A DNA stretch of 64,000 nt from an uncultured Verrucomicrobiae bacterium (GCA_963772365.1 CAVYXA010000001.1:288001-352000); one strand, 5' to 3'; counted from the stretch's first letter, positions 1-63,277 are shown. Translations and numbers: made by a program. The notes: generated by a model from the sequence alone, not told the origin.

Positions 1-872
1 GTCGATCCCTGCCGGTTGAAATCGATCTTGTGCGATCATGTTGTTGAACGCCCAGATGCTGTGACATTGGCCACAATCCAAGCCCGGCGTGGGGACCGGA
101 CAGGCGCGAAGGATTCGTGATCGACGAGTCAGATTTGGTGATCAGATGTGTTTTGAATCGCCGAAAGGGATCGTGATTCCGCGCGATATGGTCGCGTCCT
201 TCGCTGTGGCACGCTTCGCACGCGATTCCGAATTCGGCCACGTGCGTATCCCATTTATTACCGGAAACAAAACGGGATTGGCCCTCCGTTACATGACAAT
301 CCATGCAGGCGCCATTCCACGCGCCTATCGAGTAATATTCTTTCGTGTCCGGCGGCATGAGAAAGGTTTGCGTAACCGGCGCCCACATTTTTTCGGAGAT
401 AATGTAGGCGAATGGGAGTTGGTCGAGGGTGCGGCCCTGGCCGGTCTCGAGCCAGAGAATCTGCAAATTGTGCGAACCGGTGAGAAGAACTACCTGGCGA
501 GGCGGGCCGTATTCGCCGCCTGCAGGCCGGATCCGAACAACGATTTTATCGGCGTCGCGTTCCAATTTGTATTCACGACCGTTGAACGAAAGCTCCACGG
601 GCCGATCGACATCGAGAATGTTCTCGGGCCTGGCGACCTGAGTCATGGTGCGGTGAAAAGAGGCGTGCCAGCTTTTGTAATTACCAAGGTGGCAAGATCG
701 ACACGCGTTTGAAGTCGTGTAATTGGCGACAGACGATTGAATTGGCCGATTCTCCGGCGGCTGCGTCTTACTCGACGAAACGCCGAAGTGATAAGAGGGT
801 CAATAAGAAGGCCAGGCCAATCACGACGATTGCAAACAGCCCATGCCAAAAAAATCGTCTAAAATGCGGCAC
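1..872 (-). CDS. Membrane-anchored multiheme c-type cytochrome (runs off left edge; two apparent 1-nt frameshifts)
   Basis: Not in the ORF track. Manual minus-strand translation gives an N-terminal TM segment (GLFAIVVIGLAFLLTLL), then CRSCH, CMDCH and CEACH in one frame, and CGQCH after a frame change near 85. A second frame change lies near 779. Putative GTG start at 872. Confidence 0.8.
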
Positions 873-996
873 GATCGGATTCCCCTTCAGCGCCGACGAT
901 AGGAAAATACGAAGTGCGAGCAAAGCGCAATCCGCGGAGCAATTCGACGCCGAGTTGCAAACCGCGATTACAAACTTACAATCTAGCCTCTTACTC

Positions 997-1069
997 GGGG
1001 TCGTAGCTCAGTTGGTAGAGCACCACAATGGCATTGTGGGGGTCAGGGGTTCGAATCCCCTCGGCTCCA
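997..1069 (+). tRNA. tRNA-Ala (anticodon GGC)
   Basis: Cloverleaf GGGGTCG-TA-GCTC-AGTTGGTA-GAGC-A-CCACA-ATGGCAT-TGTGG-GGGTC-AGGGG-TTCGAAT-CCCCT-CGGCTCC-A. G3:U70 Ala identity pair is present; CCA is not encoded. Confidence 0.97.
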
Positions 1070-1233
1070 GTCTTCGCTCGCGTCGTAGAGGTGAGCGAAG
1101 ACTGTCGCGCCGTAGTTTCAACGAAGGCGGACCTATTGACCTGCTAAACGATTCGCGCGAGCTACGACTCAGCAAGCTAGTGATTGAAAAGCTCGCGTCG
1201 TAGAGGTGAGCGAAGACTGTCGCGCCGTAGTTT
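1068..1233. repeat. REP-like element: 43-bp direct repeat plus hairpin immediately after the tRNA
   Basis: GCTCGCGTCGTAGAGGTGAGCGAAGACTGTCGCGCCGTAGTTT at 1076-1118 and 1191-1233; 12-bp stem CAGTCTTCGCTC/GAGCGAAGACTG at 1068-1104. Confidence 0.85.
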
Positions 1234-1250
1234 TAACAACGTCGTGTGAT

Positions 1251-2871: not shown

Positions 2872-2910
2872 AAAGTTGACGCAACGCGACGGCACAATAC
2901 TTTGCGACAA

Positions 2911-3382: not shown

Positions 3383-3391
3383 GAGAAATCA

Positions 3392-3733: not shown

Positions 3734-3764
3734 ACGAGATGCAGCTTAGGTTCGGGCGAAAGGC

Positions 3765-6434: not shown

Positions 6435-7482
6435 CGACAAGGGGATTGGCGTTCAGAAGATAGTTCGCAGCGAGGATCCACCGAACCTGGAGATGCCGTT
6501 TGAGTCACTCGACGCGTTTATTACGCCGACACGATCGTTTTACGTGCGAACACATTTCCCGGTACCGAACATGGACAAGAATCAGTGGCGTCTGCAAGTC
6601 GAAGGCGCGGTAGAGGAACCTTTTGAAATTGGTTACGACGAACTAATCGCGCTGAATGCCAAAAAAGCGCCGGCGACGCTCGAGTGCGCCGGCAACAACC
6701 GAAGTTTTCTCGAACCGAAAGTCAAAGGTGTGCAATGGGGGCTGGGAGCCGTCGGCACAGCGGAGTGGACCGGCGTTCCATTGTCGATCCTGCTCGACAG
6801 AGCGCAGCTAAAACCGAACGTCTGCGAAATTATTCTGGAAGGAGCCGATAGCGGCGAAGTCGACGAGGCAAAGGCACCACGCGGAATCATTCGGTTTGCG
6901 CGCAGCATCCCACTGGAAAAAGCACGGGAGGATGTCCTGCTCGCTTATAAGATGAATGATGTCGATCTTCCCCCCGAGCATGGATTTCCGGTGCGCGCCA
7001 TTGTTCCCGGCTGGTACGCAATGGCGTCGGTAAAATGGCTAACCCGCATCGTCGCAGTTGATCGACCCTTCGGCGGTTATTATCAGACTCTCGATTATGC
7101 GTTTTGGAAAAAGGGCGAGCTGACGCCGATTTCTGAAACTCAGGTGAAAGCCCAGATCGCCCGCCCGATTCAAGGCGAAATTGTGCAGGCAAATTCGTGC
7201 GTTCGCGTTCACGGCGCCGCTTGGAGCAGTAAAGAAATCTCCAAGGTCGAAGTCAGCACCGATGGAGGATCGACATGGAACGAGGCTGCGTTGGCTAAAC
7301 GTTCCGATCCCGGCGCATGGCGGCTTTGGGAACTCGATTGGAAAACACCCGGACCCGGAAAAGCGACTCTAATTGCACGCGCGACAGATTCGAAAGGTCA
7401 AACTCAGCAACTGGAGCGGGACCCGGATCGCGGCACTTACATGATTAACCACTTGCAACCAATCGACGTGGAAGTGCGCTGA
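6427..7482 (+). CDS. Sulfite oxidase family molybdoenzyme
   Basis: FYVRTHF, TLECAGN.R, HGFPVR..VPGWY...SVKWL and a C-terminal Ig-like dimerisation domain. ATG overlaps the upstream stop. Confidence 0.9.
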   Translation: MISDKGIGVQKIVRSEDPPNLEMPFESLDAFITPTRSFYVRTHFPVPNMDKNQWRLQVEGAVEEPFEIGYDELIALNAKKAPATLECAGNNRSFLEPKVKGVQWGLGAVGTAEWTGVPLSILLDRAQLKPNVCEIILEGADSGEVDEAKAPRGIIRFARSIPLEKAREDVLLAYKMNDVDLPPEHGFPVRAIVPGWYAMASVKWLTRIVAVDRPFGGYYQTLDYAFWKKGELTPISETQVKAQIARPIQGEIVQANSCVRVHGAAWSSKEISKVEVSTDGGSTWNEAALAKRSDPGAWRLWELDWKTPGPGKATLIARATDSKGQTQQLERDPDRGTYMINHLQPIDVEVR

Positions 7483-9589: not shown

Positions 9590-10372
9590 ATGAACGGAAC
9601 CACCACGTTATCGCCAAGACAATCATTCGGCCAAACGATGCGGTCCGATCTTTGGTGGTTGCAGCCGCTTCTCGTCTTCATCGGATTATCGGCCTTCCTC
9701 GTTTATTCCACTTGGGCGGCGTTTCAAGGAAGGAATTACTACTTCGGTAATTACGTCTCGCCGTTTTATTCGCCGGAACTATTCGGCGATTCACCGCACA
9801 GTTGGTTCGGACCGAAACCGAGTTGGTGGCCGAGCTGGCTGTTATTTTCTCCCGCGCTGTTGATTCTCTGGGCGCCCGGCGGATTCCGGCTCACCTGCTA
9901 TTATTATAGGGGCGCATATTACAAGGCATTTTGGGCCGACCCGCCGGCCTGCACTGTGGGTGAGCCGCGCAAAACCTATCTCGGTGAACGCTCATTCCCG
10001 CTCATTATGCAGAATGTGCATCGCTACTTTCTTTACGTCGCGATCATCTTCATCGGGATTCTCGCTTACGACGCGTGGAAGGCGCTCTGGTTTGATGGGA
10101 AGTTCGGCATTGGAATTGGCACGATTGTTCTCGCGATCAATGTGTATCTGCTCGGCGGTTATACATTTGGCTGTCATTCACTCCGGCATTTGATCGGCGG
10201 ATTCCGCGATCAGCTTTCAAGATCGACAACCTATCGCGCTTATCGCTGCGTGACTTGTCTGAATCAGCGCCACATGCTCTGGGCCTGGATGAGTCTGTTT
10301 TGGGTCGGCTTCACCGATCTTTACGTGCGGCTTTGCTCGATGGGCATCTGGCACGATTTGCGTCTGATCTGA
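9590..10372 (+). CDS. Succinate dehydrogenase membrane anchor, actinobacterial Sdh1 (Rv0249c-like) type
   Basis: Y.SPFYSP, FRLTCYYYR.AYY.AFW.DPPAC.V.EP, QN.HRYF, GCHSLRH and N.RHM.WAW.SL motifs. Confidence 0.85.
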   Translation: MNGTTTLSPRQSFGQTMRSDLWWLQPLLVFIGLSAFLVYSTWAAFQGRNYYFGNYVSPFYSPELFGDSPHSWFGPKPSWWPSWLLFSPALLILWAPGGFRLTCYYYRGAYYKAFWADPPACTVGEPRKTYLGERSFPLIMQNVHRYFLYVAIIFIGILAYDAWKALWFDGKFGIGIGTIVLAINVYLLGGYTFGCHSLRHLIGGFRDQLSRSTTYRAYRCVTCLNQRHMLWAWMSLFWVGFTDLYVRLCSMGIWHDLRLI

Positions 10373-14308: not shown

Positions 14309-14356
14309 TTGTCGATCTTGAGCGAATCCGCATTCGCATTTAGAAGTGGGAGCGCG

Positions 14357-16171
14357 ATGGCCGAATACGACACTTTCACACACGACGTTTTGATCATCGG
14401 CTCCGGCGGAGCGGGATTGCGCGCGGCGATCGAAGCCTCGGCTGCGGGCGTTTCTGTCGGCATGGTTTGCAAATCCTTGTTAGGCAAAGCGCACACGGTG
14501 ATGGCCGAGGGCGGGATTGCTGCGGCGCTGGCGAATGTCGATGATCGCGACAATTGGAAAGTCCATTTCGCCGATACGATGCGCGGCGGCCAATACGTGA
14601 ACAATTGGCGGATGGCGGAGCTGCACGCGAAGGAAGCGCCGGATCGAGTGCGTGAACTCGAAGCCTGGGGTGCGGTTTTCGACCGAACGAAAGACGGCCG
14701 AATTCTTCAGAGAAATTTCGGCGGCCACAAGTATCCACGGCTAGCGCATGTGGGCGATCGGACCGGGCTCGAGATGATTCGGACTTTGCAGGATCACGGA
14801 GTCCACCGCGGAATCGATGTCCACATGGAGATTTGTATCACTTCGTTGTTGAAGGATGGAGAGCGTTGCATTGGCGCGTTTGGATACAATCGAGAACGCG
14901 GTCGCTTCAAGATCTTTCACGCGCGAGCGGTCGTGCTGGCGACGGGAGGGATCGGCAAAGCTTACAAGATCACGAGCAACAGTTGGGATTGTACGGGCGA
15001 CGGTCACTCGCTTGCCTATCACGCAGGCGCTGCATTAATCGACATGGAGTATGTCCAATTTCACCCCACGGGAATGGTCTGGCCACCGAGCGTGGCAGGG
15101 ATGCTCGTGACCGAAGGCGTGCGCGGCGAAGGCGGAATCCTAACGAATGCCGATGGCAAACGTTTCATGTTCGATTCGATACCCGACAACTACAAAGCCC
15201 AGACCGCCGACAACGAAGAGGAAGGCTGGCGCTACACACAGGGTGACAGAAATGCGCGGCGTCCGCCGGAGCTACTGACTCGCGATCACGTGGCGCGTTG
15301 CATCGTGCGCGAGATCAAGGAAGGGCGGGGGACACCGCACGGTGGCGTTTATCTCGACATTTCATGGATCAAGAAAAAACTTCCGAACGCGGAAGAACAC
15401 ATCAAACGCAAATTGCCGAGCATGTATCATCAGTTTAAAGCGCTCGGCGATATCGATATTACCGATGAAGCGATGGAAGTCGGCCCGACCACGCATTACA
15501 TCATGGGCGGCGTGCACGTGAACGCGGATACGCAAATGTCCGATGTGCCGGGATTATTCGCTGCTGGCGAATGCGCTGCCGGAATCAATGGGGCAAACCG
15601 GCTTGGCGGGAATTCGCTCTCCGATTTGATCGTGTTCGGTAAACGGGCCGGCGAATACGCGGCGAAGTTCGCGAAAGAGAATCCGCACGGCGGGATCGAC
15701 AACAACAACAAGATCGACAATTACGCGCGCGAAGCGTTGCGCCCATTCGAAAATGATCGGGGAGAAAACCCGTATTCGGTCCAGCGCGATCTCCAGGAGA
15801 TCATGCAGCATAATGTCGGCATCGTGCGTGATGAAGGCGAGATGTTGTCGGCGCTCGAGCACATCAAAGCATTTACAGAACGCGCCGCGAAAGTAGGTGT
15901 GATCGGTAATCGTGATTTTAATCCGGGTTGGCACACTGCTCTAGATCTAAAGAATTTGCTTACCGTCTCGGAGGCAATTACGCGAGCTGCCTTGGAAAGA
16001 AAAGAGAGCCGGGGCGCTCAATTTCGAGAAGATTATCCAAACAAGGACGACAAATTTTCCAAGGTGAACACAATAATCCGAAACGCCAATGATGGTTTAA
16101 TGGAAGTTCGTCTGGAACCGCTGCCGGAAATGCCGGATTATTTAAAGCAGGTTGTCGAAGAGAATCGTTAA
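14357..16171 (+). CDS. sdhA: Succinate dehydrogenase/fumarate reductase flavoprotein subunit
   Basis: GSGGAG, KAHTVMAEGG (covalent FAD His), QFHPTG, TEGVRGEGG, GANRLGGNSL and ESRG motifs. Confidence 0.95.
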   Translation: MAEYDTFTHDVLIIGSGGAGLRAAIEASAAGVSVGMVCKSLLGKAHTVMAEGGIAAALANVDDRDNWKVHFADTMRGGQYVNNWRMAELHAKEAPDRVRELEAWGAVFDRTKDGRILQRNFGGHKYPRLAHVGDRTGLEMIRTLQDHGVHRGIDVHMEICITSLLKDGERCIGAFGYNRERGRFKIFHARAVVLATGGIGKAYKITSNSWDCTGDGHSLAYHAGAALIDMEYVQFHPTGMVWPPSVAGMLVTEGVRGEGGILTNADGKRFMFDSIPDNYKAQTADNEEEGWRYTQGDRNARRPPELLTRDHVARCIVREIKEGRGTPHGGVYLDISWIKKKLPNAEEHIKRKLPSMYHQFKALGDIDITDEAMEVGPTTHYIMGGVHVNADTQMSDVPGLFAAGECAAGINGANRLGGNSLSDLIVFGKRAGEYAAKFAKENPHGGIDNNNKIDNYAREALRPFENDRGENPYSVQRDLQEIMQHNVGIVRDEGEMLSALEHIKAFTERAAKVGVIGNRDFNPGWHTALDLKNLLTVSEAITRAALERKESRGAQFREDYPNKDDKFSKVNTIIRNANDGLMEVRLEPLPEMPDYLKQVVEENR

Positions 16172-48712: not shown

Positions 48713-48926
48713 AGTCGAGCGCTTTATCGTAGCTCTTTCGCTGGAGAAAGTGGTTCAATCGCGGGTCGACTGACCCCGACAAGGCGGCCTGCAATTGATC
48801 GATCTTTTCAGAAACGGCGCGCAATCGCGCCATGTGCTTCGCTTCATCGCGCCGACTTTCTTGATCTTGAATAATGGCGAGTCGTTCCCGCAGAGCATCG
48901 GCAAGATCGACAATGCCATTTTCCAT
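48687..48926 (-). CDS. Small hypothetical helical protein convergent with rpsD
   Basis: 79-aa amphipathic ORF ending L.HFLQR.SYDKAL; 3' ends overlap rpsD by 26 bp. Confidence 0.7.
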   Translation of the reverse strand: MENGIVDLADALRERLAIIQDQESRRDEAKHMARLRAVSEKIDQLQAALSGSVDPRLNHFLQRKSYDKALDFIENTTRR

Positions 48927-49425: not shown

Positions 49426-49731
49426 CTCAGACAAAAGCTGACGCTTCCCTTCCAGCCAATCCGAATCCGAATCGCCCGGCAGACCGAGCCGATGTCGACG
49501 CTCAGAAATGAAATAGGCGCGCATACGGATTTGTTCATCGCTCGGCTCTGACGATGGCGCCTGCTTTGGGCTTTTTGCCGGCGCGATTTTTGCAGATTTC
49601 TTACCGCGGGAGGAAACGCCTTTGCGGACTGATGTCGATCTTCGACGCGTTGTTTTCTTCTCGCCGCCAACCCCGCAAGAGCCCCTCGCCTCCGGCGAGC
49701 CATTGTTCCTTGTATTCGAATTTTTCGGCAC
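49411..49731 (-). CDS. DUF2934 domain protein with basic N-terminal region
   Basis: EQIR.RAYFI.E.R...G....DWLE. Confidence 0.8.
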   Translation of the reverse strand: MPKNSNTRNNGSPEARGSCGVGGEKKTTRRRSTSVRKGVSSRGKKSAKIAPAKSPKQAPSSEPSDEQIRMRAYFISERRHRLGLPGDSDSDWLEGKRQLLSESGTR

Positions 49732-49837
49732 AGAATTCGATTAACCTGCAGTGCGCGATTCGCAAATTTTTTCTCAGTTCAACGCTCATTTTCTATGCTG
49801 CTTGGACAGTCACTCGATTCGGCATACCCTTGTCGTC

Positions 49838-50248
49838 ATGCGGCATTTCGTTTTCCGGTGGGGAATCACGACTCTGGCAGTCATGGTTGCCTCATCGTTG
49901 ATCGAGGGGATTCGCTACGACAGCGTAGCCGCTTTGATCGGGGCGGCGCTGTTGCTCGGAATTTTAAACGCTTTTCTCCGGCCGATCTTGTTGATTCTGA
50001 GCGCACCGCTTATTTTGCTGAGTCTGGGGTTCTTCATTCTAATCGTAAACGGGCTAATGCTCCTCATCGTCCCGCACATCGTCTGGGGTTTTCAGGTAGA
50101 TAGTTTCTGGAGCGCATTTTGGGGCGCAATCGTGATCAGTATTGTCAGCTGGATTCTGAGTGCATTTTTCCGCGGCAGTGATGGCCGGGTTCACGTATTA
50201 ACGCATCACACTCAGATCAAACGTGTGCAGGGTCGCGTTGTGAAATAG
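49838..50248 (+). CDS. YvlD/DUF360 (phage holin 4 family) membrane protein
   Basis: ALLLGILNA.LRPIL..L..P...LGFF.L.VNG...F.SAFWGA. Confidence 0.88.
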   Translation: MRHFVFRWGITTLAVMVASSLIEGIRYDSVAALIGAALLLGILNAFLRPILLILSAPLILLSLGFFILIVNGLMLLIVPHIVWGFQVDSFWSAFWGAIVISIVSWILSAFFRGSDGRVHVLTHHTQIKRVQGRVVK

Positions 50249-50299
50249 CAGTGGCGATCCGGAACATAACTCGGGAAAAAAGCTCCACGATCACTTAAA

Positions 50300-50495
50300 C
50301 ACGGATAGTCGACAGAGGTGGTCCGTGGATTGGCGGTTCGCCTTTGCGTGGGGAGTTGTTGAAACTCTGTCTTTTCCAGGGCGTTGGCTCCCGCGCAGCT
50401 CTGGCGAATCCTGCCGAGATTCCCACAAAAGGGAGAGTGCAAAACCGGCCTCCGGGCTGGTCTGCTTCCTGCTTTACACAGCCGAGCACTTTTAA
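50300..50495 (+). ncRNA. Candidate structured RNA leader upstream of the secretin gene
   Basis: Four nested or serial stems with many G-U pairs that work only on the + strand, and a cUCCGg tetraloop. Confidence 0.45.
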
Positions 50496-50510
50496 CCTGC
50501 AATCGTAATT

Positions 50511-52217
50511 ATGGTAAACCTTCTCAAATCCCTGGGCTGTGCGGCGGCGGCGTTGCTCGGTGCATTGTCCTTTTCTCAAGCACAAACCAGCGCGCCAGAC
50601 CCAGCGACCGGACAAGCTCCAGCTACTGCGGTTTCATCTACCGGTTCGACTGCGAAGAGCGCGGACAACTCGTCCTTGACGTTGGTGCAGGCGCCCACAG
50701 GTAACGCACCCACGCCGGGAGCACCTGCAGTTGCTGTGAAGAGCGATACCGCGTCTCCGGCAGATGAACAGGGCGGAGGTGTTGGAGTTCGCGAATTTCA
50801 AGGCGACGATGTCGGCCAGGTTCTGCGATTGCTTGCTCGTCAGGCGAAAATCAATCTTGTGGTGAGTGAAGCTGTGACCGGCACAGTCACGATGCGGTTG
50901 GAAGACGTCACTGCGCTTCAGGCAATCGAGATCATCGTCAAAGCCAAGGGACTGTTCCTGGATAAAATCGACAATGTCTATTACGTGAAGACGGATGCGG
51001 AACGCGCCAAGGAACCGACGGAATCGGACAGCTACCAATTTAGCTATGCTCGGGCGAAAGATGTTGCCCCGTTAATCGCGTCGCAGTTGGCCAGCGGGGT
51101 CGCGCCGCAAGTTGACGAGAGAACGAACACCGTCTTCTTCCGCGAGACCCGCAGCAATATCGATCACATTCGCGGGATGCTGGTGCAGATCGATAAACCG
51201 ACCCGGCAGGTGATGATCGAAGCGCGTCTGGTCGAAGTGACGGCCAATCCCAAGCAGAGCTACGGAATCAATTGGGGCGGGGTGCTTGGAAGTTCTACCA
51301 ATCCCCAGACATTCTCTTATACAGGAACGAATGGCAAAGTGGATCCGATCACCGGGCAACTGATTAAAAGCGATCCTCAATTGGGCAACGCAGCGAATTC
51401 GAATTTCTATGGCAACCTTTCCCATTTGACCGGTCAGTTTGCGATTCTTACATTACCACAGTTTTCGGCTACTCTGCGCCTGCTCAACGAGGATAGTGAT
51501 GCCGAATTTCTGGCTAACCCGCGAATCGTCACGGCCGACAATCAGCAGGCTAAAATTGAAATCTCTCGGGCCCAGCCCGTGCCGCAGTTGAATTTCAACG
51601 AGCAAACCGCTCAGGCGGTCTTCAGCGGATTCCAGGATAAAAAGTTTGGCAACACCCTGCTGGTTCGCCCTTCTGTAAACAAAGACAATTTTGTCACGCT
51701 AAGCGTAAAACCAGAGATCAGCAACAAGGTCGGTGATCAGACGTTCACCTTCAGCGGCGCGACCGTGGCGAGTCCGATTATCGACACACGCTCTCTCGAC
51801 TCGAATGTTCTTATCAGAAGCGGTGACACTCTGGCGATCGGCGGCTTGCTGCAAGACGAAGTGAGCAAGGGGCGAAGCAAGGTCCCGGTGCTCGGGGATG
51901 TCCCCATTTTCGGCTATTTCTTCCAGGAACGCTTAAATGCGCGCACGAAACGCAACCTGCTGGTGTTTGTTACCCCGACAATTCTGGATGCGCGATATGG
52001 CACGGGATTGGAGGACCAGGTCTCAGGAATTCATCACAGTGGCGAAGAGTTTGCCGATCCTGACGGCTGGCGCAATAACGCGAAGGGCGCCATTCGTCTG
52101 GTTCCGACAGCACAGCGTCAGGTCGCCGCGGATTACGCCAAGCCAGGCGTGCCGCCGGCGCCGGAAGCAGCGTCCGAAGTGCAATTTAAGTCTTCAGCCA
52201 AGGATCGCGATTTTTAG
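50511..52217 (+). CDS. Secretin (PilQ/GspD family)
   Basis: Signal peptide, N-domains (VLRLLA.Q..INLVV, VDERTN), QVMIEARLVEV, A.PRIVT.DN, IGGLL...KVPVLGD.P.FG.FF and LLVFVTP.I. Confidence 0.93.
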   Translation: MVNLLKSLGCAAAALLGALSFSQAQTSAPDPATGQAPATAVSSTGSTAKSADNSSLTLVQAPTGNAPTPGAPAVAVKSDTASPADEQGGGVGVREFQGDDVGQVLRLLARQAKINLVVSEAVTGTVTMRLEDVTALQAIEIIVKAKGLFLDKIDNVYYVKTDAERAKEPTESDSYQFSYARAKDVAPLIASQLASGVAPQVDERTNTVFFRETRSNIDHIRGMLVQIDKPTRQVMIEARLVEVTANPKQSYGINWGGVLGSSTNPQTFSYTGTNGKVDPITGQLIKSDPQLGNAANSNFYGNLSHLTGQFAILTLPQFSATLRLLNEDSDAEFLANPRIVTADNQQAKIEISRAQPVPQLNFNEQTAQAVFSGFQDKKFGNTLLVRPSVNKDNFVTLSVKPEISNKVGDQTFTFSGATVASPIIDTRSLDSNVLIRSGDTLAIGGLLQDEVSKGRSKVPVLGDVPIFGYFFQERLNARTKRNLLVFVTPTILDARYGTGLEDQVSGIHHSGEEFADPDGWRNNAKGAIRLVPTAQRQVAADYAKPGVPPAPEAASEVQFKSSAKDRDF

Positions 52218-52240
52218 ATCGACAACGAATGTGGGGTTGA

Positions 52241-52282
52241 GAGGGGGCGGATGCTCGCAAGGTGTCCGCCCTCTTTTGTTTT
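52241..52282 (+). terminator. Intrinsic terminator after the secretin gene
   Basis: GGGCGGATGC...GTGTCCGCCC stem followed by TCTTTTGTTTT. Confidence 0.8.
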
Positions 52283-52288
52283 GCTAAA

Positions 52289-52888
52289 CTACCCATTCAA
52301 ATATTTCGATAGTCGCGCACGCAACTCCGTCCGCGCTCGAAAGAGAACGCTCTTCACTGCAGGCACGGATAAACCGAGAATCTCTCCGATCTCTTCATAA
52401 CTGAGCTCCTCATATCTTCGAAGGATTAGCGCCATGCGCTGCGTTTCAGGCAGCTGCATGATCGTGTCTTCAATAGCCCGCTGCAGCTCGGCCTCCAGTA
52501 GCGATGAATCCGGCGTCGGATTGTTCTGATCTCTTACGGGAAGTTCTCCGTCGCCGCTTTCAATTTGTAACGGAACGTGAGAATGCCGTTTGGTCCGGCG
52601 GAGTTCATTGAAAACGAGGTTACGCGTAATTTTGAGCAACCAGGTGGTGAATCTTGCTCGGGCTACGTAACGCCCCGAGCTCTTCCACACGCGAATGAAG
52701 ACTTGTTGCGCAATATCTTCGACATCGGAATTGCTGCCGAGCATTCGCGCGACTGTTCCCACGACCAAACCCTGATGTCGTTCGATCAATCGTTCGAACG
52801 CTTGCGTATCTCTATCGGCCACGAGGCGCATCAGACGAACGTCCTCGATTTGTTCGAGGTCATCCGGCGGTTTCGGATTCGTGGACAT
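52289..52888 (-). CDS. ECF sigma-70 factor (RpoE-like)
   Basis: AFE.L..RH, EDIAQ.VF..VW, F.TWL.KI..N and LSYEEI..ILG.S..AVKS.LFRAR. Confidence 0.93.
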   Translation of the reverse strand: MSTNPKPPDDLEQIEDVRLMRLVADRDTQAFERLIERHQGLVVGTVARMLGSNSDVEDIAQQVFIRVWKSSGRYVARARFTTWLLKITRNLVFNELRRTKRHSHVPLQIESGDGELPVRDQNNPTPDSSLLEAELQRAIEDTIMQLPETQRMALILRRYEELSYEEIGEILGLSVPAVKSVLFRARTELRARLSKYLNG

Positions 52889-52995
52889 TGCGAACAATAC
52901 GGCAGGAGTCACGCGCGAGCACGAATGAGCACGGGGCGACTAAGCTGTTTTCCGTTGCAACGCAAGGCGTAGCCATGCATGATTCCGCGGCAAAG

Positions 52996-54909: not shown

Positions 54910-55848
54910 ATAAGATCGACATCCGCGTCGGGATCTCCGGCTGGCGTTATCCGGGGTGGCGGGGCAAATTTTACCCGAAAGACCTGCCGCAACGCCGCGA
55001 GCTCGAATTTGCTGCGAGCAAATTCAATTCCGTTGAGATCAACGGCTCGTTCTACTCACTTCAGCTTCCCTCCAGCTATCAGCGCTGGTATGCGGAAACG
55101 CCCGATGATTTTCTCTTTGCGGTCAAAGGAGGGCGATTCATCACTCACATGAAAAAGCTTCGCGAGGTTAGAACTCCGCTGGCCAACTTCTTTGCTTCGG
55201 GTGTACTCTGCGTTGCGAGAAAAACTTGGCCCGATCCTGTGGCAGTTGCCTCCCAATCTCGGGTGGGACCGACAGCGCTTGCAGACTTTTCTTGGGTTGC
55301 TCCCTCGTGAAACGGCCGAGGCGGCGAAGCTCGCAACCAAACACGACGACAAACTAAAAGCGCCAGCCTGGACCAGGATCGACATCTCGCGTCTCCTTCG
55401 TTATGCCATCGAAGTCCGTCACGATAGTTTCATGACTCCTGATTTTTTCGATCTGCTGCGCCGGTGCAATGTCGCATTCGTCTTCGCCGATACTGCCAAG
55501 AAATGGCCTTACGCCGAAGATTTGACCGCAGATTTCATTTACATCCGCCTTCATGGCGCCGAAGAAATTTATGTCAGTGGTTATGGCGACCACGCGTTGA
55601 ATTGGTGGGCAGAGCGGATCGAGAAATGGCAGCATGGCCGACAACCTCTCGACGCGACTGTTATTGGGTCTGCCCGAGGCGACAATAGAGCGCGTGATGT
55701 GTTTGTTTATTTCGATAACGACGCCAAAGTATTCGCGCCGTTTGACGCCATCCGGCTTTGCCAGAGATTGCAGCGCGTCGAACAGTTGCCGGTTGATCGG
55801 CCGGAGCGTGAACCAAGAGCAAAACGAAAATGCGCACCATCATTGTAA
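54855..55848 (+). pseudogene. DUF72 family protein (1-nt frameshift near 55209)
   Basis: IRVGISGWRY..W...FYP and VEINGSFY are in one frame; LREKLGPILWQLPP, EVRH.SF, YIRLHG and YFDNDAK are in the next. Confidence 0.85.
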
Positions 55849-56891
55849 CCGGTTCAGCCGGCCTGATTGGTTCTGAAACCGCCAGGTATTTTGCCGGAAA
55901 AGGCGGGCGCATCGTGGGAATCGACAACGATATGCGCTCGCAATTTTTCGGGCCAGAAGCTTCGACAAAGAAAACGCGCGACGCTTTGATCAAGAATCTC
56001 CGCAGTTACGAGCATCATAGCATCGACATTCGAGATGCGGCCAAGATCGACAGTTTATTCAAACAACATTCCGGTAACGTTGACGCGATCGTGCATACTG
56101 CTTCTCAGCCGTCGCATGACTGGGCGGCGCGCGATCCGCAAACCGATTTCACGGTAAACGCGAACGGCACCCTCAACTTATTGGAAGCGGCACGGAAGTT
56201 CTGCCCCGAAGCCGCCTTCATTTTTACATCGACAAATAAAGTCTATGGCGACACGCCCAATCGTTTGCCCTTGCGAGAGCTGGAAAAACGCTGGGAGATC
56301 GAACCCGGCCATAAATACGAACCGGGCATCTCCGAGTCGATGAGTATCGACAACACGAAACACTCTTTGTTTGGCGCGTCGAAAGTTGCGGCGGATGTGC
56401 TCGTGCAGGAATACGGACGCTATTTTGGAATGCCGACGGTTTGCTTCCGGGGAGGTTGCCTTACCGGACCGGCCCACGCCGGAACTGAGCTTCACGGGTT
56501 CCTTTCCTATTTAATGATCTGCACTGTCACCGGACGCCCGTATCGCGTTTTCGGTTACAAAGGAAAACAGGTGCGCGACAACATTCACAGCTTCGATCTG
56601 GTCGAAGCGTTTGCGGAATTCCTCCGCGCGCCGCGCGTCGGCGAGGTTTACAACATTGGCGGCGGCCGTCACAGCAATTGCTCGATGCTGGAAGCGATCG
56701 AGATGTGCGAGCAAATCAGCGGCAAGAAACTACTTTGGACTTACGAAGAAACGAACCGGATAGGCGATCACATCTGGTGGATCAGCGATGTGCGAAAGTT
56801 TCAATCCCATTATCCGAATTGGAAGTTCCGCTACGGAATGCGAGAAATTCTGGAAGAAATCCATCGCGCGGTCGCAACCAAGCCGCTTTGA
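55830..56891 (+). CDS. NAD-dependent epimerase/dehydratase (CDP-paratose 2-epimerase-like)
   Basis: [24 protein letters not shown] and GKQVRDNIH motifs. Confidence 0.9.
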
Positions 56892-57433: not shown

Positions 57434-58189
57434 ATGCCTTCGCTCGTCGCCGTCGCCGCTTACATTGACGATTTACTTCGTATCCGCGACATCCAGGATT
57501 GGCCAAACGCCCTGAATGGTCTTCAAATCGAAAACTCCGGGCGAGTGACCAAGATCGGCGCATCGGTGGACGTTTCGACGCGAATACTGAAAGCGGCAGC
57601 CAAAAAAAATGTCGATCTTCTGATCGTCCATCACGGTTTGTTCTGGCCGGGACTGCAACCGGTGACAGAGTCATTGCATCGGCAATTGCGGATTGCATTC
57701 GAACACAACATCGCGCTTTACAGCGCACATCTTCCGCTCGATGTGCATTCCCGATTGGGGAACAATTCGCAACTCGCGGCTGCCCTTGGTTTGAAATCGA
57801 CTAAGCCGTTCCTCGAAGAGAAAGGTCAATCGATCGGATTAAGAGCGCGTTTTTCATTATCGAGAGAACAGCTGGTTCGCCGGGTGAGCAGTGTGTTAAA
57901 GGCTCCAGTGAAAACGTTTCGATTCGGACCGAAAACGACGAAAAATATTGCCGTCGTGACCGGCGGCGCGGGCTCGGAAATTTACCGCGTCGCGGAGCAG
58001 CAGATCGATACCTTCATCACCGGCGAAGCGCCGCATTGGGCGGCTATTGCCGCGGAAGAACTCGAAATCAATCTGATTCTCGGCGGCCATTACGCGACCG
58101 AAACCTTCGGCGTCAAAGCTTTAGCCGCGCATTTATCGAAACGCTTCAAACTTCCGTGGGAATTGATTGGTTTTCCCACGGGACTGTAA
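57434..58189 (+). CDS. Nif3-like dinuclear metal centre protein
   Basis: NGLQ, VHHGLFW, HLPLD.H..LGNN, ITGE and GHYATE.FG motifs. Confidence 0.95.
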   Translation: MPSLVAVAAYIDDLLRIRDIQDWPNALNGLQIENSGRVTKIGASVDVSTRILKAAAKKNVDLLIVHHGLFWPGLQPVTESLHRQLRIAFEHNIALYSAHLPLDVHSRLGNNSQLAAALGLKSTKPFLEEKGQSIGLRARFSLSREQLVRRVSSVLKAPVKTFRFGPKTTKNIAVVTGGAGSEIYRVAEQQIDTFITGEAPHWAAIAAEELEINLILGGHYATETFGVKALAAHLSKRFKLPWELIGFPTGL

Positions 58190-58193
58190 GCCA

Positions 58194-59807
58194 ATGGCAG
58201 CGGCGCAAGATCGACAATCGAGCACGCGCGCGACTGGCGTCGTTGGGCTGGCGATTCTTTGCAGCCGCCTTCTCGGTCTGATTCGAGAACAGGTGTTTGC
58301 GGGGCTGTTTGGCGCTGGAAGAAATCTCGACGCATTCCTGATGGCGTTTCGCCTGCCGAATCTGCTGCGCGATCTGTTTGCCGAGGGCGCGCTTTCGACA
58401 GCGTTCATTACAACGTTTTCGCAAAAGATCGCAGTCGAAGGTGATGAATCGGCCTGGCGGCTGGCAAATAAAGTCGCGACCCTCACGGCCCTTTTCATGA
58501 GCGCGGTGACGCTGCTCGGGATCATTTTTGCGCCTCAGCTTGTCGATCTTCTCACCTGGGGCGCGTGGTCACCGGACAAGACTGCGCTAACCATTCTGCT
58601 TACGCGGATCATGTGGCCATTCATGCTTCTGGTTTCCCTGGCTGCGCTAGTGATGGGAATGCTGAACGCGAAACATGTGTTTGGACCGCCGGCCATGGCG
58701 TCGAGCTATTTCAATCTCGGCTCGATTATTGCCGGTGTCGGCATTGGTTGGTGGCTGGACCCGCACTTCGGCGCTCGCTCGCTCACCGGTTTAGCAATCG
58801 GAACATTGATCGGCGGCGCCTGGCAATTGAGCGCCCAATTTCCATCTTTGCGACGCGTCGGCTATAAATACAGGCCGGATTTTCACTGGCGTGATGAAGG
58901 CGTGCGCACGGTGCTAACGCTGATGGCTCCAGCCGTAATCGCCGCGAGCGCCGTCCAGGTCAACGTGCTCGTAAATAGCGGATTTGCTGCGAGTCTCGGC
59001 AACGGCCCGGTGAGTTGGCTCAACATCGCCTTTCGGTTGATGCAATTGCCATTGGGAATCTTCGGTGTTGCCATCGGCACGGTCACGCTTCCGCTCGTTT
59101 CGAAAAGTGCCGCGGTGGGAAACATGGATCAGTTCCGCGCGATTCTCGCTCGCGGGATGCGACTCGCGTTCCTACTCACCATCCCGTCCGCGATCGGTCT
59201 GGCGATGCTGGCGTCGCCAATAATCAGCGTGATTTATCAGCACGGTCGATTCACGCCGGAAATGACGCGTCAAACGGCTGGCGCGCTGCGCTTTTACGCT
59301 ATCGGCCTGGTTTCGTATGCAGCGCTTAAAGTGCTGACGCCCGCGTTTTACGCGATTGGAAAACGCAATACGCCGATGATTGTGAGCTTTCTCGCGATCG
59401 GCACAAATCTCTTTCTCAACTGGCTGTTCACCTTTCGCCTCGGGTGGGGTCATCGCGGCCTGGCTTTTTCCACAAGCATCGTGGCGACCATCAATTTCCT
59501 GTTGCTCTACTCGTTGATGCACCAGCAAACGCAGCGGCTCGAGACGCGCCAATTGCTCGAGGGCCTAGGGAAAATCTGCATCGCGGGCGCCTTGCTCGCG
59601 CTCGTCTGTTGGGCGGCAAATTACTGGTGGCTCGGTGCCTGGGCCCAACTGCGTTTTGTTCCCAAGCTTTGGATCCTGCTTGCAACCATTGCTTTTGGTG
59701 CCGGAATATTTTTCGGAACAGCCCTTCTGCTCCGGGTAAGCGAAGTTCAGGAAATTGTCGATCTCTTCCGGCGCAAATTCTGGCGGCCCAATCAGCCGAG
59801 CGCGTGA
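58194..59807 (+). CDS. murJ: Lipid II flippase MurJ (MviN)
   Basis: SRLLGL.RE, DAF..AFRLPNL.R.LFAEGA.S.AF and A.RLMQLPLG.FGVA motifs. Confidence 0.95.
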   Translation: MAAAQDRQSSTRATGVVGLAILCSRLLGLIREQVFAGLFGAGRNLDAFLMAFRLPNLLRDLFAEGALSTAFITTFSQKIAVEGDESAWRLANKVATLTALFMSAVTLLGIIFAPQLVDLLTWGAWSPDKTALTILLTRIMWPFMLLVSLAALVMGMLNAKHVFGPPAMASSYFNLGSIIAGVGIGWWLDPHFGARSLTGLAIGTLIGGAWQLSAQFPSLRRVGYKYRPDFHWRDEGVRTVLTLMAPAVIAASAVQVNVLVNSGFAASLGNGPVSWLNIAFRLMQLPLGIFGVAIGTVTLPLVSKSAAVGNMDQFRAILARGMRLAFLLTIPSAIGLAMLASPIISVIYQHGRFTPEMTRQTAGALRFYAIGLVSYAALKVLTPAFYAIGKRNTPMIVSFLAIGTNLFLNWLFTFRLGWGHRGLAFSTSIVATINFLLLYSLMHQQTQRLETRQLLEGLGKICIAGALLALVCWAANYWWLGAWAQLRFVPKLWILLATIAFGAGIFFGTALLLRVSEVQEIVDLFRRKFWRPNQPSA

Positions 59808-60907
59808 TCCAGGTCTTCAATCAAATCGTCGGCATTTTCGAGCCCGATTGATAAACGCAGCAAGCCGGGCGGTGATGTTGTTCCCGGTCCTTCGATTGAT
59901 GCGCGATGCTCGATCAAACTTTCGACACCACCCAGGCTGGTCGCGCGAGTAAAAATCTTTGTCTTCGCCGCGACTGACATCGCTGCATCGCTTCCATCTT
60001 TGACTTCGAACGACAGCATCCCGCCAAACGAGGACATTTGTTTCGCGGCGATCTCGTGACCAGGATGCGATTTCAATCCGGGATAATGCACACGGCCCAC
60101 TTGTCGATGCTGGGCTAGAAACGTCGCGACTTTGGCTGCGTTCTCGGAATGCGCCCGCATCCTCCAGGGCAAAGTACGCATGCCGCGCAAGATCAGCCAG
60201 CAATCGAAAGGTGAGGGGACCGCGCCACCCTCGTACTGGATATTATGGATGCGTTGAAAGAACTCGCCCTCGGATTTCGATACGACGATTCCTCCGAGCA
60301 CATCGCAGTGGCCGCCGAAATATTTTGTGGTCGAATGCAAAACCAGATCGGCGCCGAGTTCGAAAGGTCGCTGGAGAACCGGCGCCCAGGTGTTGTCGCA
60401 AACACAAATTGCCCCGGCGTCATGAACGACATCTGCCACCGCCTTCAGATCGACAATTTTCAACAGCGGGTTCGATGGCGTCTCCATCCAGGCCAGTTTC
60501 GTTTTCGCTCGAATAGCTTTCTTCACCGCGCTGAGATTGCTCATGTCGATGAAATCGGCCTCAAGGCCCCAACGAAGGAAAATCTCACGGACAATTCGCG
60601 ACGTCCCGTAGTAAGCATCGACGTGGGCAACCACGTGGTCGCCCGGCGCTAACGCCTGGAAGATCGACATCGTGGCGCCGCTTCCCGATGCAAATGCAAC
60701 GGCACTGGTGCCGCCCTCGAGAGCGCTGATCCCTTGCTCGAGCGCCTGGCGATTCGGATTATTGTTCCGGGCGTACATGAATCCGCGCGAATAACTTCCT
60801 TCCACATCGCGCTCGAAGGTCGTCGAAAGATGAATCGGCGGTGAGACTGCGCCTGTAGCCGGATCGATCGACTGACCCGCATGCACCGCGATAGTTTCAA
60901 TTTTCAT
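59792..60907 (-). CDS. Cystathionine gamma-synthase/lyase family PLP enzyme
   Basis: Y.R..NP.R, ETPSNP, DNT, HSTTKY.GGH.D and SLGGVESLIEH motifs. Confidence 0.93.
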   Translation of the reverse strand: MKIETIAVHAGQSIDPATGAVSPPIHLSTTFERDVEGSYSRGFMYARNNNPNRQALEQGISALEGGTSAVAFASGSGATMSIFQALAPGDHVVAHVDAYYGTSRIVREIFLRWGLEADFIDMSNLSAVKKAIRAKTKLAWMETPSNPLLKIVDLKAVADVVHDAGAICVCDNTWAPVLQRPFELGADLVLHSTTKYFGGHCDVLGGIVVSKSEGEFFQRIHNIQYEGGAVPSPFDCWLILRGMRTLPWRMRAHSENAAKVATFLAQHRQVGRVHYPGLKSHPGHEIAAKQMSSFGGMLSFEVKDGSDAAMSVAAKTKIFTRATSLGGVESLIEHRASIEGPGTTSPPGLLRLSIGLENADDLIEDLDHALG

Positions 60908-61063
60908 TTGGCTGTGACGCTACTTGATTTCGCACGCCGCTGTCGATCTTACTGCATGTTTCGTTTGGCTCTCGCGGCTTTGAGAGTTGACTCGCGAACG
61001 CTTTCGGAGTTGACGGCTGGATTTGTCCAGCGCAAATAGCAAGCCTGCCCTTTGGGTAATTCC

Positions 61064-62326
61064 ATGACGATTTACGACGACGAAGTTTTTAAAATGGCGT
61101 GCGACCAGTTTCAGGTCATCGCCGATTACCTCAGCATCGACAAGAACGACCGGGAATGGGCGACCTATCCCAAGCGCGCTGTCGCAGTGACGCTGCCGGT
61201 CCACATGGATGACGGCACTACCAAAGCTTTCCAGGGTTATCGAGTCCAACATCACATCGCCCTCGGACCGACCAAAGGCGGCACGCGTTTCGCGCCATCA
61301 TTGTCGATGGGTGAAACGGCTGCGCTGGCCATGTGGATGAGCTGGAAATGCGCCCTCGCCCAATTGCCTTACGGCGGAGCGAAAGGCGGCGTGGCAGTCG
61401 ATCCAACGAAATTATCGCACGCGGAGCTCGAGGCCGTATCTCGCCGCTATATGCAGGAAATGATCCCATTTGTCGGGCCGCATACCGACATCATGGGACC
61501 CGACATGGGCACGAACGAACAGATCATGTCGTGGTTCATGGATACCTATTCGGTTTACATGGGTTATGCCGTAAACGAAATCGTGACTGGGAAACCGGTT
61601 TCCATCGGCGGGACCGAAGGCAGGCGAGAATCGACCGGGCGTGGTGTGGTTTATCTAATCGAGCGCGCGATGAACATGCTGAAGATGGATCCGGAAAAGT
61701 GCACAGCTATCGTGCAGGGATTTGGGAATGTCGGTTCGGTCGCGGCGCTTTCGCTTGCGCTCAAGAGCGGAGTAAAGGTCGTCGGGATCAGCGATGCCTA
61801 CGCGGCAGTCTACAATTCAAAAGGGATCGACGTGAAGGCAGCCGAGCAACATGTGTTAAAAAAGGGGTCGCTCAAGGCTTTCGACCAGGGCGACCGTGTC
61901 GATCCAAACGAGTTGCTGACGTTACCCTGCGATATTCTGGCGCCGTGCGCGGTTGATCGCGTGATCACTGATAAGAATGCTGGAAACATCAAGTGTCGTA
62001 TTCTGGCTGAAGGAGCGAATGGGCCAACTACGCCTGCAGCGGATTTAATTCTGGATCAGCGTCCAGATGAGGTATTTGTAATTCCCGATATACTTTGCAA
62101 CGCCGGCGGCGTTATTGTCTCGTACTTCGAATGGGTCCAGGGTCTGCAAAGCTTCCTTTGGAGCGAATCCGAAGTGACCGACAAGCTCTTCCGAATTCTC
62201 GAGCACTCTTTCGCGCAGGTGATCCGGCGGGCTCGCGACCATAAAATTTCCCATCGCACGGCAGCCATGGCGATTGGTGTTGAGCGGGTGCTTAAAGCCA
62301 AGCAAATGCGCGGTTTGTTCCCATGA
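61064..62326 (+). CDS. Glu/Leu/Phe/Val (glutamate) dehydrogenase
   Basis: GPTKGG.RF, GGAKGG, VTGKP...GG, QGFGNVG, EGANGPT and NAGGV.VSYFEW motifs. Confidence 0.95.
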   Translation: MTIYDDEVFKMACDQFQVIADYLSIDKNDREWATYPKRAVAVTLPVHMDDGTTKAFQGYRVQHHIALGPTKGGTRFAPSLSMGETAALAMWMSWKCALAQLPYGGAKGGVAVDPTKLSHAELEAVSRRYMQEMIPFVGPHTDIMGPDMGTNEQIMSWFMDTYSVYMGYAVNEIVTGKPVSIGGTEGRRESTGRGVVYLIERAMNMLKMDPEKCTAIVQGFGNVGSVAALSLALKSGVKVVGISDAYAAVYNSKGIDVKAAEQHVLKKGSLKAFDQGDRVDPNELLTLPCDILAPCAVDRVITDKNAGNIKCRILAEGANGPTTPAADLILDQRPDEVFVIPDILCNAGGVIVSYFEWVQGLQSFLWSESEVTDKLFRILEHSFAQVIRRARDHKISHRTAAMAIGVERVLKAKQMRGLFP

Positions 62327-62332
62327 GCCGCG

Positions 62333-63277
62333 ATGAAGGCTTCGCATCGCGAAGATAACCGGCTAGATCGACAACTCGACGTTTTAACGGACGAGGAGAA
62401 CGGCGTGCGGATTATCGTTTCGCGTCTCGGCGCGGAGTTGATTAGCCTGGCCCGAGCGGACGAAACCGGCCAATGGACCGGTTTCCTCAATCGCGATGAT
62501 GACCTCAGCGCACCCGCGTCTGGCTGGGCGAATCACGCCACGGTAATGGGTTACTATTTGCACAGGCTAAAAAATGGCCGGAGTTCTTATCGCGGCCACG
62601 AGATCAAAGGCGGCACGCACGGTTTTCTTCGCCACAAAAAATGGAATCTGGCGGAGTGCGAAACCAACAGTGGCGCATGGCTGACCTATCGCATTACACC
62701 GCGGGATTTTTCCGAGGCCGAATATCCTTTGCGAGTCAGCCTCAATCTCACTTACAGGATCGACAACGAAAAGGTGGTCGTCACTTTTGCTTTTCGAAAT
62801 GAGGAACCGGAATTGACCGCGCACGTCGGCTTTGGGTTACACCCGGGTTTTGGCGCCACTTCTTTCGATGCTTTCCGGTTCCAAATGCCGCGGGGCCTTT
62901 ATCGCCGCTATTTTTCTCGGGAGAATTATCTCTCCGGCGAAACACGCGATATTGAGTTTTCGGGAGGCGAAATGCCGTTTCCCAAGAGTGAGCTTCCCGG
63001 GTCAGTCATCCTTCAATTGCTCGATGTTCCGCGACCTCAATTTTCGTTTGTCGATCCCCCGAGTGGTCGCTGGGTGATTGTCGATCTTAGTGGAGTGCCT
63101 TATCTCACCTTGTGGTCCGATGGCGGGCCGTTTCTCTGTATCGAGCCCTGCTGGGGCCTAACCGATCACCATCAGCAACGCGCTTTTGAAAACAAAGAGG
63201 GAATCCAAATAATCCCGCCTGCTGGTGAATTGCGAGCGTCCTTTAGCATGCTTCCGCAGTTTGCTTCCTGCGATTAG
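62333..63277 (+). CDS. Aldose 1-epimerase (galactose mutarotase-like) family protein
   Basis: GAELIS, HGFLR, G.HPGF and FLCIEPCWG motifs. Confidence 0.85.
   Translation: MKASHREDNRLDRQLDVLTDEENGVRIIVSRLGAELISLARADETGQWTGFLNRDDDLSAPASGWANHATVMGYYLHRLKNGRSSYRGHEIKGGTHGFLRHKKWNLAECETNSGAWLTYRITPRDFSEAEYPLRVSLNLTYRIDNEKVVVTFAFRNEEPELTAHVGFGLHPGFGATSFDAFRFQMPRGLYRRYFSRENYLSGETRDIEFSGGEMPFPKSELPGSVILQLLDVPRPQFSFVDPPSGRWVIVDLSGVPYLTLWSDGGPFLCIEPCWGLTDHHQQRAFENKEGIQIIPPAGELRASFSMLPQFASCD

Follow-up and report, generated by a model that had tools for sequence, protein, structure and literature searches.

The stretch analyzed here, 64 kb of DNA from an uncultured Verrucomicrobiae bacterium (hereafter the window, G000:C1:288001-352000; assembly G000 comprises 3,345,792 bases in 6 contigs at 54 to 56% G+C), raises the question of why one 10-base word, AAGATCGACA (word A), recurs throughout it on both strands. 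The original prediction, made from the sequence alone, had counted about 30 exact copies and noted many with one mismatch. It proposed a sequence-specific signal for natural transformation, and it named a protein- and codon-preserving shuffle, strand skew relative to the replication origin and terminus, a flanking logo, dialects across relatives, and competence genes as checks. Here, a pattern search recovered all 30 exact copies at the predicted positions and strands (20 plus, 10 minus), compared to a chance expectation of 0.17 (standard deviation, 0.40; maximum, 2; 100 dinucleotide-preserving shuffles). Allowing up to one mismatch yielded 62 window matches versus 5.69 expected, 32 of them one-mismatch copies (AGGATCGACA, 11; AACATCGACA, 6; TAGATCGACA, 2; CAGATCGACA, 2; others, 11). 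The likeliest reading, which we hold at roughly an even chance, is that word A and a second word found in relatives, GCCTAACGA (word B), are DNA uptake sequences accumulated by molecular drive. Neither word equals its own reverse complement.

Genome-wide abundance and coding context of word A

Across the G000 genome, word A was the top-ranked 10-mer, with 1,048 exact copies (543 plus, 505 minus), and the next-commonest 10-mers were words overlapping it or its variant AGGATCGACA. A logo anchored on TCGACA carried information over ∼11 positions, A-[A/G]-[G/C]-A-T-C-G-A-C-A-[A/T], with a fuller form of [C]-A-[A/G]-[G/C]-ATCGACA-[A/T]. The motif was sharp, at 10 to 11 bases, and its flanks were flat, indicating that word A is not part of a longer repeat. 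Departures from the word were not uniform: A2G accounted for 483 copies and G3C for 299, while the core T-C-G was nearly invariant. AACATCGACA, which lacks GATC, was the third commonest form (299 copies), and G3C and C9G were also leading variants in two relatives, G007 and G039. This profile resembles that of a protein-DNA recognition site, and A2G looks like a dialect of the G000 lineage.

Spacing of word A was close to Poisson (mean gap, 3,070 bases; median, 2,092 versus 2,128 expected; coefficient of variation, 1.07), with fewer close pairs than expected (15 versus 33 under 100 bases; 0 versus 10 under 30 bases). The original prediction had listed Chi-like sites among its alternatives, and a polar motif for recombination repair or segregation, of the Chi, KOPS (FtsK-orienting polar sequence), or AIMS (architecture-imparting sequence) type, would fit in two respects: such motifs are likewise lineage-specific, over-represented short words, and the window holds 20 plus-strand copies to 10 on the minus strand. 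This excess, however, tracks gene orientation and frame use. Chi and KOPS/AIMS are strand polar relative to replication, whereas the words here are not. Genome-wide, the strands of word A stood at 543 versus 505, counts in 50-kb bins revealed no strand switch, and the cumulative forward-minus-reverse walk matched permuted strands on the three largest contigs (C1, 39 versus 42.1, P = 0.66; C3, P = 0.20; C5, P = 0.53), with no turn at GC-skew turning points. Polarity stronger than about 55:45 is therefore refuted, which leaves an explanation of this type with next to no probability. Neither replichore polarity nor clustering was detected in G000, as would be expected of a DNA uptake sequence (DUS).

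We then considered whether preferences for codons, dipeptides, or peptides could account for word A. Gene calls were crude, consisting of long open reading frames (ORFs) scored by codon usage (2,427 genes, 77% of G000). Of the 1,048 copies, 866 lay in called genes (343 sense, 523 antisense), 11 lay across a gene end, and 171 were intergenic; no intergenic or promoter preference was detected in G000. Five of the six frames were used substantially, and two dominated (V-D-L, 433 copies; K-I-D, 244; remaining frames, 45 to 86 each), as a coding by-product would predict. However, the 871 genic copies observed fell to 63.3 when synonymous codons were shuffled within genes, a procedure that preserves the protein and the codon usage of each gene, and to 11.6 when codon order was shuffled (20 shuffles each). 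Shuffling thus removed 93 to 99% of genic copies, and the enrichment exceeds codon bias, as the original prediction had argued from the diversity of frames. V-D-L was encoded as GTCGATCTT in 471 of 736 instances (22.9 expected from codon usage), and K-I-D was encoded as AAGATCGAC in 316 of 427 (43.7 expected). Of the tripeptides that occurred 200 times or more, KID ranked first in over-representation (3.5-fold) and VDL ranked fifth (2.4-fold). These data show that word A bends the proteome, overriding codon choice and even amino acid sequence.

Orthologous sites of the ribosomal operon, compared across the clades of relatives described below, showed how copies arise. At the rpsH site (41247 to 41256, plus strand, K-I-D), other clades carry CTCGAG (L-E) where G000 carries ATCGAC (I-D), indicating that word A was made there by substitutions changing two residues. 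At the rplD site (34885 to 34894, plus strand, K-I-D), the exact word (GCGAAGATCGACATTA) was one of six variants listed for 14 alignable loci of the word A clade, and none was listed in other clades. The copy at 37463 to 37472 (plus strand) was also clade specific. A few copies are conserved coding words of long standing, as a coding by-product would have it: the rpsC copy (38548 to 38557, plus strand, K-I-D) was kept in every clade as well as in the Chthoniobacter outgroup and thus predates the drive, and the word at 36677 to 36686 (plus strand) was also present in loci of other clades. In the operon, orthologous sites differed by substitution and not by insertion, showing that the words arise in place through point substitutions. 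In the 21-kb SecY region, all nine alignable G000 sites were common to another genome and none was private, compared to 3 of 10 private sites in locus L031, numbers too small to weigh.

Remnants of a longer mobile repeat were rejected as well: the flanks were free of information, and the differences were substitutions. A dispersed repeat of the repetitive extragenic palindrome or miniature inverted-repeat transposable element type was rejected, given that information is confined to 10 to 12 bases and that 83% of copies are genic. With 171 intergenic copies and the losses on shuffling, we consider an origin as a coding by-product or as repeat remnants to be refuted.

Distribution of words A and B among relatives

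The SecY gene of the window matched 80 public loci. With two exceptions, these came from soil metagenome-assembled genomes whose titles read Verrucomicrobia(ota), Chthoniobacterales, Spartobacteria, or Candidatus Udaeobacter, which supports placing G000 in the Udaeobacter group. The two exceptions, 87 to 88% identical to the window gene, were titled Dormiibacterota (L082) and Methylomirabilota (L091) and are likely misbinned contigs; L082 grouped inside the Udaeobacter clade, and L091 gave no SecY ORF and is not in the tree. Word counts were made in a 31-genome set, with one genome per genus of the Candidatus Udaeobacter family (19 genomes) plus 12 other families of the order Chthoniobacterales, and in a wider sample covering 36 genera of the family (201 genomes). 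Six unpublished genomes (G003, G008, G014, G147, G167, and G184) enter the cross-genome tallies of words A and B, ComEC, ComEA, PilT, and Dam; the conclusions are independent of them.

In the 31-genome set, word A reached 699 to 2,607 copies in seven further genera of the family, 114 to 186 in two genera, and 12 to 54 in the remaining family members. The 12 other families had 0 to 19 copies each (reversed-word control, 0 to 3). Overall, word A was abundant in ∼13 genera, from hundreds of copies up to 4,653 in 2.9 Mb (G039, 1.6 copies/kb), the maximum in the 201-genome sample. Density was characteristic of the genus yet spread more than 10-fold within some genera (g47, 0.05 to 0.77 copies/kb; g10, 0.02 to 0.35 copies/kb).

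This spread bears on the possibility that the words are sites of an abundant, lineage-specific chromosomal protein (for nucleoid structure, segregation, or marking of self in defense), each site being kept by selection. A strong core (ATCGA) with weaker edges does resemble protein-DNA recognition, and the tolerated variants G3C and C9G recur in G000, G007, and G039. Against such a protein stand the density range within single genera, the thousands of sites lying in coding frames despite their amino acid cost, and the lack of intergenic or promoter preference in G000. Known families of nucleoid or segregation sites number tens to hundreds and are often palindromic. We therefore consider a chromosomal protein quite improbable.

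Word B, which pervades the greater part of the remaining family, surfaced among the commonest 9-mers of the SecY loci, with up to 34 copies in 21.5 kb and sharp edges. In the 31-genome set, the seven richest family genomes (G002, G003, G004, G005, G006, G012, and G016) contained 417 to 1,808 copies, and all were poor in word A; 16 of the 19 family genomes had at least twice as many copies as of the reversed-word control. Outside the family (G019 to G030), word B numbered 0 to 19 copies versus 12 to 99 for the reversed control, indicating that it is avoided there rather than merely unenriched. In the 201-genome sample, maxima were 4,633 copies (G189) and 4,336 copies in 3.2 Mb (G061, 1.36 copies/kb), and the strand totals were 64,963 versus 64,676. 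Within 335 kb of loci from the word B clade, 175 copies were distributed among ORFs (113), intergenic positions (40), and gene ends (22), the word containing TAA. The 113 ORF copies compared to 4.0 after synonymous shuffling, and all four stop-free frames were used. Word B is thus like word A in its behavior.

In a quickly computed tree of 65 SecY rows (the other 15 of the 80 loci, shorter than 8 kb or with no recognizable ORF, were left out), word B filled a clade of 16 rows (support, 99), and word A filled the larger part of a second, 21-row clade (support, 84) to which G000 belongs. Chthoniobacter and several other clades carried neither word. Both were present in genus g39: in 217 kb of G039, word A stood at 1.79 copies/kb with a ratio of one-mismatch to exact copies of 0.23, and word B at 0.70 copies/kb with a ratio of 1.17. 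The commonest word B variants in this genome, GCCTAACAA and GCCTAACGG, are transitions. Physical linkage of the two words in G039 was rejected, as nearest-neighbor distances were those of independent positions. From these patterns, we infer that the family's older specificity was word B and that word A replaced it in one clade, where word B has been eroding since. Word A was common to related genera, and the spectra of its variants differed among G000, G007, and G039.

In the word-poor genera g8 and g10, which bear ComEA, a search of 200 kb each for a third word found nothing above 0.15 copies/kb, only minor repeats. Moderately repeated words in genera poor in both words were GGCCGTGTTG (28 copies) and CCGGTTGTGTT (20 copies) in 200 kb of G071 (L129 to L138) and GCCGTGTTG (31 copies) in G163 (L119 to L128); these may be part of another dispersed repeat.

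Evidence bearing on a role in DNA uptake

In the sources consulted, uptake sequences are named for two families only, Neisseriaceae and Pasteurellaceae (10.1101/2025.10.24.684340, PMC1939737, PMC7811141). Full-text searches, which leave most subscription journals outside, found neither word described and no uptake sequence for Verrucomicrobia or Udaeobacter, in agreement with the original prediction that none had been described in this lineage. Among the matches listed, words A and B occurred in primer or construct text only.

The density of word A lies in the range sought for an uptake sequence (0.3 to 2 copies/kb, asymmetric, and far above chance), rising to 1.6 copies/kb. Strand balance, lack of polarity or clustering, independence of coding, and sharing across genera with variants are further features in common. 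Like the words here, Neisseriaceae DUS are nonpalindromic 10- to 12-mers on both strands without polarity, with variants across genera and with type IV pilus, ComEC, and DprA genes present (Frye 2013, PMC3630211; Berry 2013, PMC3868556). The uptake signal sequences (USS) of Pasteurellaceae, like the words here, accumulate by substitution in genes, favor certain frames, and distort the proteome (Findlay and Redfield, PMC2817400; Bakkali, PMC1939737). They are also of two types in one family, and their receptor is likewise predicted at most (10.1101/2025.06.16.659825). The present case differs from Neisseriaceae DUS in phylum, in the word itself, in having no member of the ComP_DUS family, and in that a single family holds two unrelated words, not one-base dialects. 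It differs from Pasteurellaceae USS in lacking AT-rich phased flanks, in having Poisson-like and not notably even spacing, and in its more than 10-fold density variation within genera. A further difference from the known systems is the apparent erosion in lineages without a ComEA-type gene. Copy number of DUS in Neisseriaceae is roughly one per kb, and inverted pairs of DUS in Neisseria form terminators; here, no inverted word pairs serving as terminators were found.

Competence genes were searched for in G000. ComEC (771-amino-acid [aa] frame) and DprA were present, together with four secretins (one within the window), four ATPases of PilB/GspE size, three of PilT size, and eight prepilin-like ORFs with PilC, PilM-like, and GspK-like neighbors. 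In the dense word A genome G007, the ComEA-type protein is 303 aa long, with a signal peptide, a staphylococcal nuclease-like domain, and a C-terminal HHH_3 domain (L099:5555-6466).

We propose the following mechanism. A DNA receptor on the cell surface, belonging to the type IV pilus machinery and not homologous to ComP, would favor DNA bearing the word; this DNA would enter by way of retraction driven by PilT, a periplasmic ComEA-type protein, and ComEC; and recombination would copy the word into the genome, so that molecular drive would accumulate words while mutation eroded them. Word B would have been the older specificity in the family and word A its later replacement in one clade, and the drive would have weakened or been lost in G000. 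The Udaeobacter family as a whole would then practice a sequence-coded exchange of DNA among kin, with a code rewritten at least once (GCCTAACGA, then AAGATCGACA), read by a non-ComP receptor, and switched off and eroding in some lineages, including G000. This broader proposal we hold tentatively, at a little under an even chance.

Several observations weigh against a role in uptake. No ComEA-type HHH_3 domain was matched in G000 (90% complete) with PF12836 or TIGR00426, which leaves its machinery incomplete, nor was a ComEA-type gene found in its congener G001. The syntenic position in G000, which follows the same thiE-like and sugar-kinase genes as in G007, retains just an N-terminal remnant split over two frames and devoid of the helix-hairpin-helix (C1:674974-675382; L206:2974-3382); judged from its sequence, the ComEA-type gene of G000 is a frameshifted, truncated pseudogene. 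No ComP_DUS domain (PF16732) passed the cutoff in G000, the best match being 22.5 bits versus a cutoff of 27.3 (pilin, C1:1329443-1330030). ComEC, DprA, and PilT were rejected as discriminators, since they are nearly universal even in families that carry neither word (ComEC in 29 of the 31 genomes; PilT in 199 of the 201 Udaeobacter family genomes). ComEC of G007 is split by one frameshift into frames of 374 and 401 aa (L100:6646-8938, C9, minus strand), although this may be a long-read assembly error rather than decay. Terminator-like inverted pairs of word A were lacking in G000, with no gap under 30 bases, and such close gaps in G007 numbered 11 versus 11.7 expected.

The relation between ComEA and word density cuts both ways. 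In Bacillus subtilis, ComEA is described as a DNA-binding protein without which uptake is abolished (PMC12236230). A ComEA-type domain (E at most 1e-8) was scored in 108 of the 201 family genomes: 22 of 25 with at least 0.6 copies/kb of either word (20 of 23 without the unpublished G014 and G167), 8 of 8 with at least 0.8 copies/kb, and 86 of 176 with less than 0.6 copies/kb. The three exceptions at 0.6 copies/kb or more belong to genera whose other members carry the gene. These density thresholds were picked post hoc, however, and the genomes are related by descent, such that the association is confounded by phylogeny. A genus-level rank test gave no relation between ComEA and density (P = 0.94), and there was no trend inside genera; ComEA presence as a general predictor of density was accordingly rejected. 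The ComEA-bearing genera g10 (22 of 22 genomes), g8 (14 of 22), g36, and g45 are poor in both words, and in g47 the gene is missing in 19 of 21 genomes, yet densities are 0.05 to 0.77 copies/kb. At most, a ComEA-type gene seems to be required for the highest densities without being enough to produce them. The original prediction is partly supported: the sequence-level tests that it proposed came out as for DUS, whereas the gene search met a ComEA-type pseudogene and no ComP-family pilin above the cutoff alongside the ComEC, DprA, secretin, and PilT genes. The best-matching pilin was itself rejected as a ComP homologue, as only the generic N-terminal helix was covered and the protein has no cysteine. 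A similar N-terminal ComEA-type remnant was present in G047; the same query found nothing in G001, G066, G017, or G032.

Degeneracy of the words speaks for a link to the gene. The ratio of one-mismatch to exact copies ranged from 0.23 to 0.79 in four ComEA-bearing samples (word A in G039, 0.23, and G007, 0.54; word B in G061, 0.43, and G038, 0.79) versus 1.30 to 1.86 in four ComEA-lacking samples (word A in G000, 1.54 [genome-wide, 1.69], G066, 1.78, and G017, 1.30; word B in G032, 1.86), a ratio that is partly coupled to density through the chance background. An uptake sequence should favor noncoding DNA; noncoding-to-coding density ratios, based on crude gene calls, were mixed: values were high in ComEA-bearing G007 (1.85), G039 (word A, 1.86), and G061 (2.71) and low in G000 (0.74 to 0.77), G066 (0.69), and word B of G039 (0.76), but ComEA-lacking G017 (1.39) and G032 (2.71) and ComEA-bearing G038 (1.02) did not conform. 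This ratio was rejected as a marker of relics. Degenerate copies of word A are more numerous than exact ones in G000, and its density there is ∼1/5 that of the densest relatives. Taken with the ComEA-type pseudogene, this sparser and more degenerate state than in ComEA-bearing relatives suggests that the drive has weakened or been lost, and word A in G000 may be a decaying relic.

The disagreement between ComEA status and genus-level density would also be expected if the words were kept abundant by an intracellular process (sequence-specific methylation coupled to biased repair, for instance, or to gene conversion) that plays no part in uptake and whose specificity switches with the enzyme. 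The model for such an internal drive is HIP1 of cyanobacteria (GCGATCGC), which like the words here is a hyperabundant short word of unproven function found in coding and noncoding DNA across a whole lineage. Copy density and the spread over in-frame and intergenic positions match reports on HIP1 (PMC4390886, PMC5861425). Recent work ties HIP1 to transformation (10.1101/2024.09.10.611283, PMC13756078). As the original prediction pointed out, word A holds both GATC and TCGA, and a Dam-family gene is present in G000. The GATC link is weakened, however, by the high rank of the GATC-less AACATCGACA (299 copies) and by the distribution of Dam, and word B contains neither GATC nor TCGA. Within PF02086, the one methyltransferase family searched, G000, G011, G014, and G017 each had a match, and G009 had a weak one (1.4e-6, over the cutoff); none was found in G007, which is dense in word A (99% complete), or in G015 or G001. 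A Dam-family methyltransferase was therefore rejected as a partner of word A, there being no consistent link. HIP1 is a palindrome recognized by two orphan methyltransferases, whereas words A and B are asymmetric, contiguous 9- to 11-mers and the Dam-family gene does not track word A. No enzyme is known to us that would repair a mismatch wherever it falls in a 10-mer. On balance, an internal drive of this kind is unlikely, though it is the main alternative to uptake. The sole Dam-family match in G000 (C1:69505-70101) lies in a 24-kb word-free stretch (C1:63033-86813) by a high-G+C contig end, which suggests acquired DNA.

If the words do serve uptake, they would constitute the first uptake-sequence system outside Proteobacteria, in a family that would record the birth, replacement, and decay of an uptake specificity over ∼200 sequenced species. 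To our knowledge, uptake sequences are the sole means by which bacteria favor DNA of their own kind in transformation. The Candidatus Udaeobacter family is among the most abundant of soil bacteria, and a comparable signature in uncultured Verrucomicrobia would suggest sequence-biased gene exchange in dominant soil lineages. Two unrelated words in active, mixed, and eroded states would provide a natural experiment in which to look for a receptor of a new kind, and word density provides a simple marker to assign or check metagenomic contigs of the family. Should the words not serve uptake, they would still record a strong, unexplained sequence-specific drive, which would be equally interesting; either an uptake system or an unknown internal drive would be new for the phylum Verrucomicrobiota.

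Individual copies and other features of the window and genome

By crude gene calls, the window copies read as KID (seven), VDL (nine), SRST, QDRQ, MSIL, MSIF, and LSIL, and 11 of the 30 were not in called genes. The frames first reported (KID, VDL, [S]RST, QDRQ, and MSIL) were thus seen, with the exception of CRS. Sense copies outside the ribosomal operon encode S-R-S-T (10219 to 10228, plus) or K-I-D (15710 to 15719, plus; 25427 to 25436, minus, in secDF; and 56043 to 56052, plus). The murJ gene has one sense copy encoding Q-D-R-Q (58207 to 58216, plus) and one antisense copy in the V-D-L frame (58541 to 58550, minus). The V-D-L frame was also used antisense to genes at 20634 to 20643, 20733 to 20742, and 22664 to 22673 (all plus), twice in tgt (27548 to 27557 and 28049 to 28058, both plus), and at 57610 to 57619 and 63079 to 63088 (both minus). 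Other antisense copies lie in adk (45811 to 45820, minus, M-S-I-L) and at 60660 to 60669 (plus, M-S-I-F).

In the ribosomal operon, rplR also carries a K-I-D copy (42405 to 42414, plus), and a further copy lies at 39596 to 39605 (plus). This last site and those at 36677 and 37463 are probably within short ribosomal-protein genes missed by the gene caller, as judged from operon order and conservation. One copy is 5′ of secY (43522 to 43531, minus) and another directly follows a menaquinone synthesis gene (54912 to 54921, plus). No gene was called at 694 to 703 (plus), 6960 to 6969 (minus), 48903 to 48912 (plus), or 49633 to 49642 (minus). Of the two copies first described as intergenic, the one at 60941 to 60950 (minus) is so. 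The other, at 14310 to 14319 (minus), is uncertain: it falls in the first codons, at the 5′ edge, of a flavoprotein (FAD_binding_2) ORF called as the longest frame (14309 to 16171), and it may be intergenic given the uncertain true start of that ORF.

Directly after the ribosomal operon, positions 49751 to 52912 encode a holin-family membrane protein, a 568-aa secretin (50511 to 52217), and a divergent sigma factor of the extracytoplasmic function type; no pilus assembly genes adjoin the secretin. Elsewhere in G000, the longest stretches free of word A were C3:773762-832895 (G+C, 0.68) and C1:1-63033 (G+C, about 0.70), both at contig ends. Within them, C1:1-59500 and C3:774000-832895 (∼60 kb each) have 65 to 73% G+C, versus 55% elsewhere, and zero copies of the word. 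The change in composition is abrupt, falling near C1:59-60 kb and C3:774 kb, with no tRNA at either junction, and these two ends look like chimeric joins, misbinned DNA, or very large foreign islands. Certain 14-mers, such as TGAGCGAAGCGAAA (48 copies) and CGCTCAGAATGACA (47 copies), were also highly repeated in G000.

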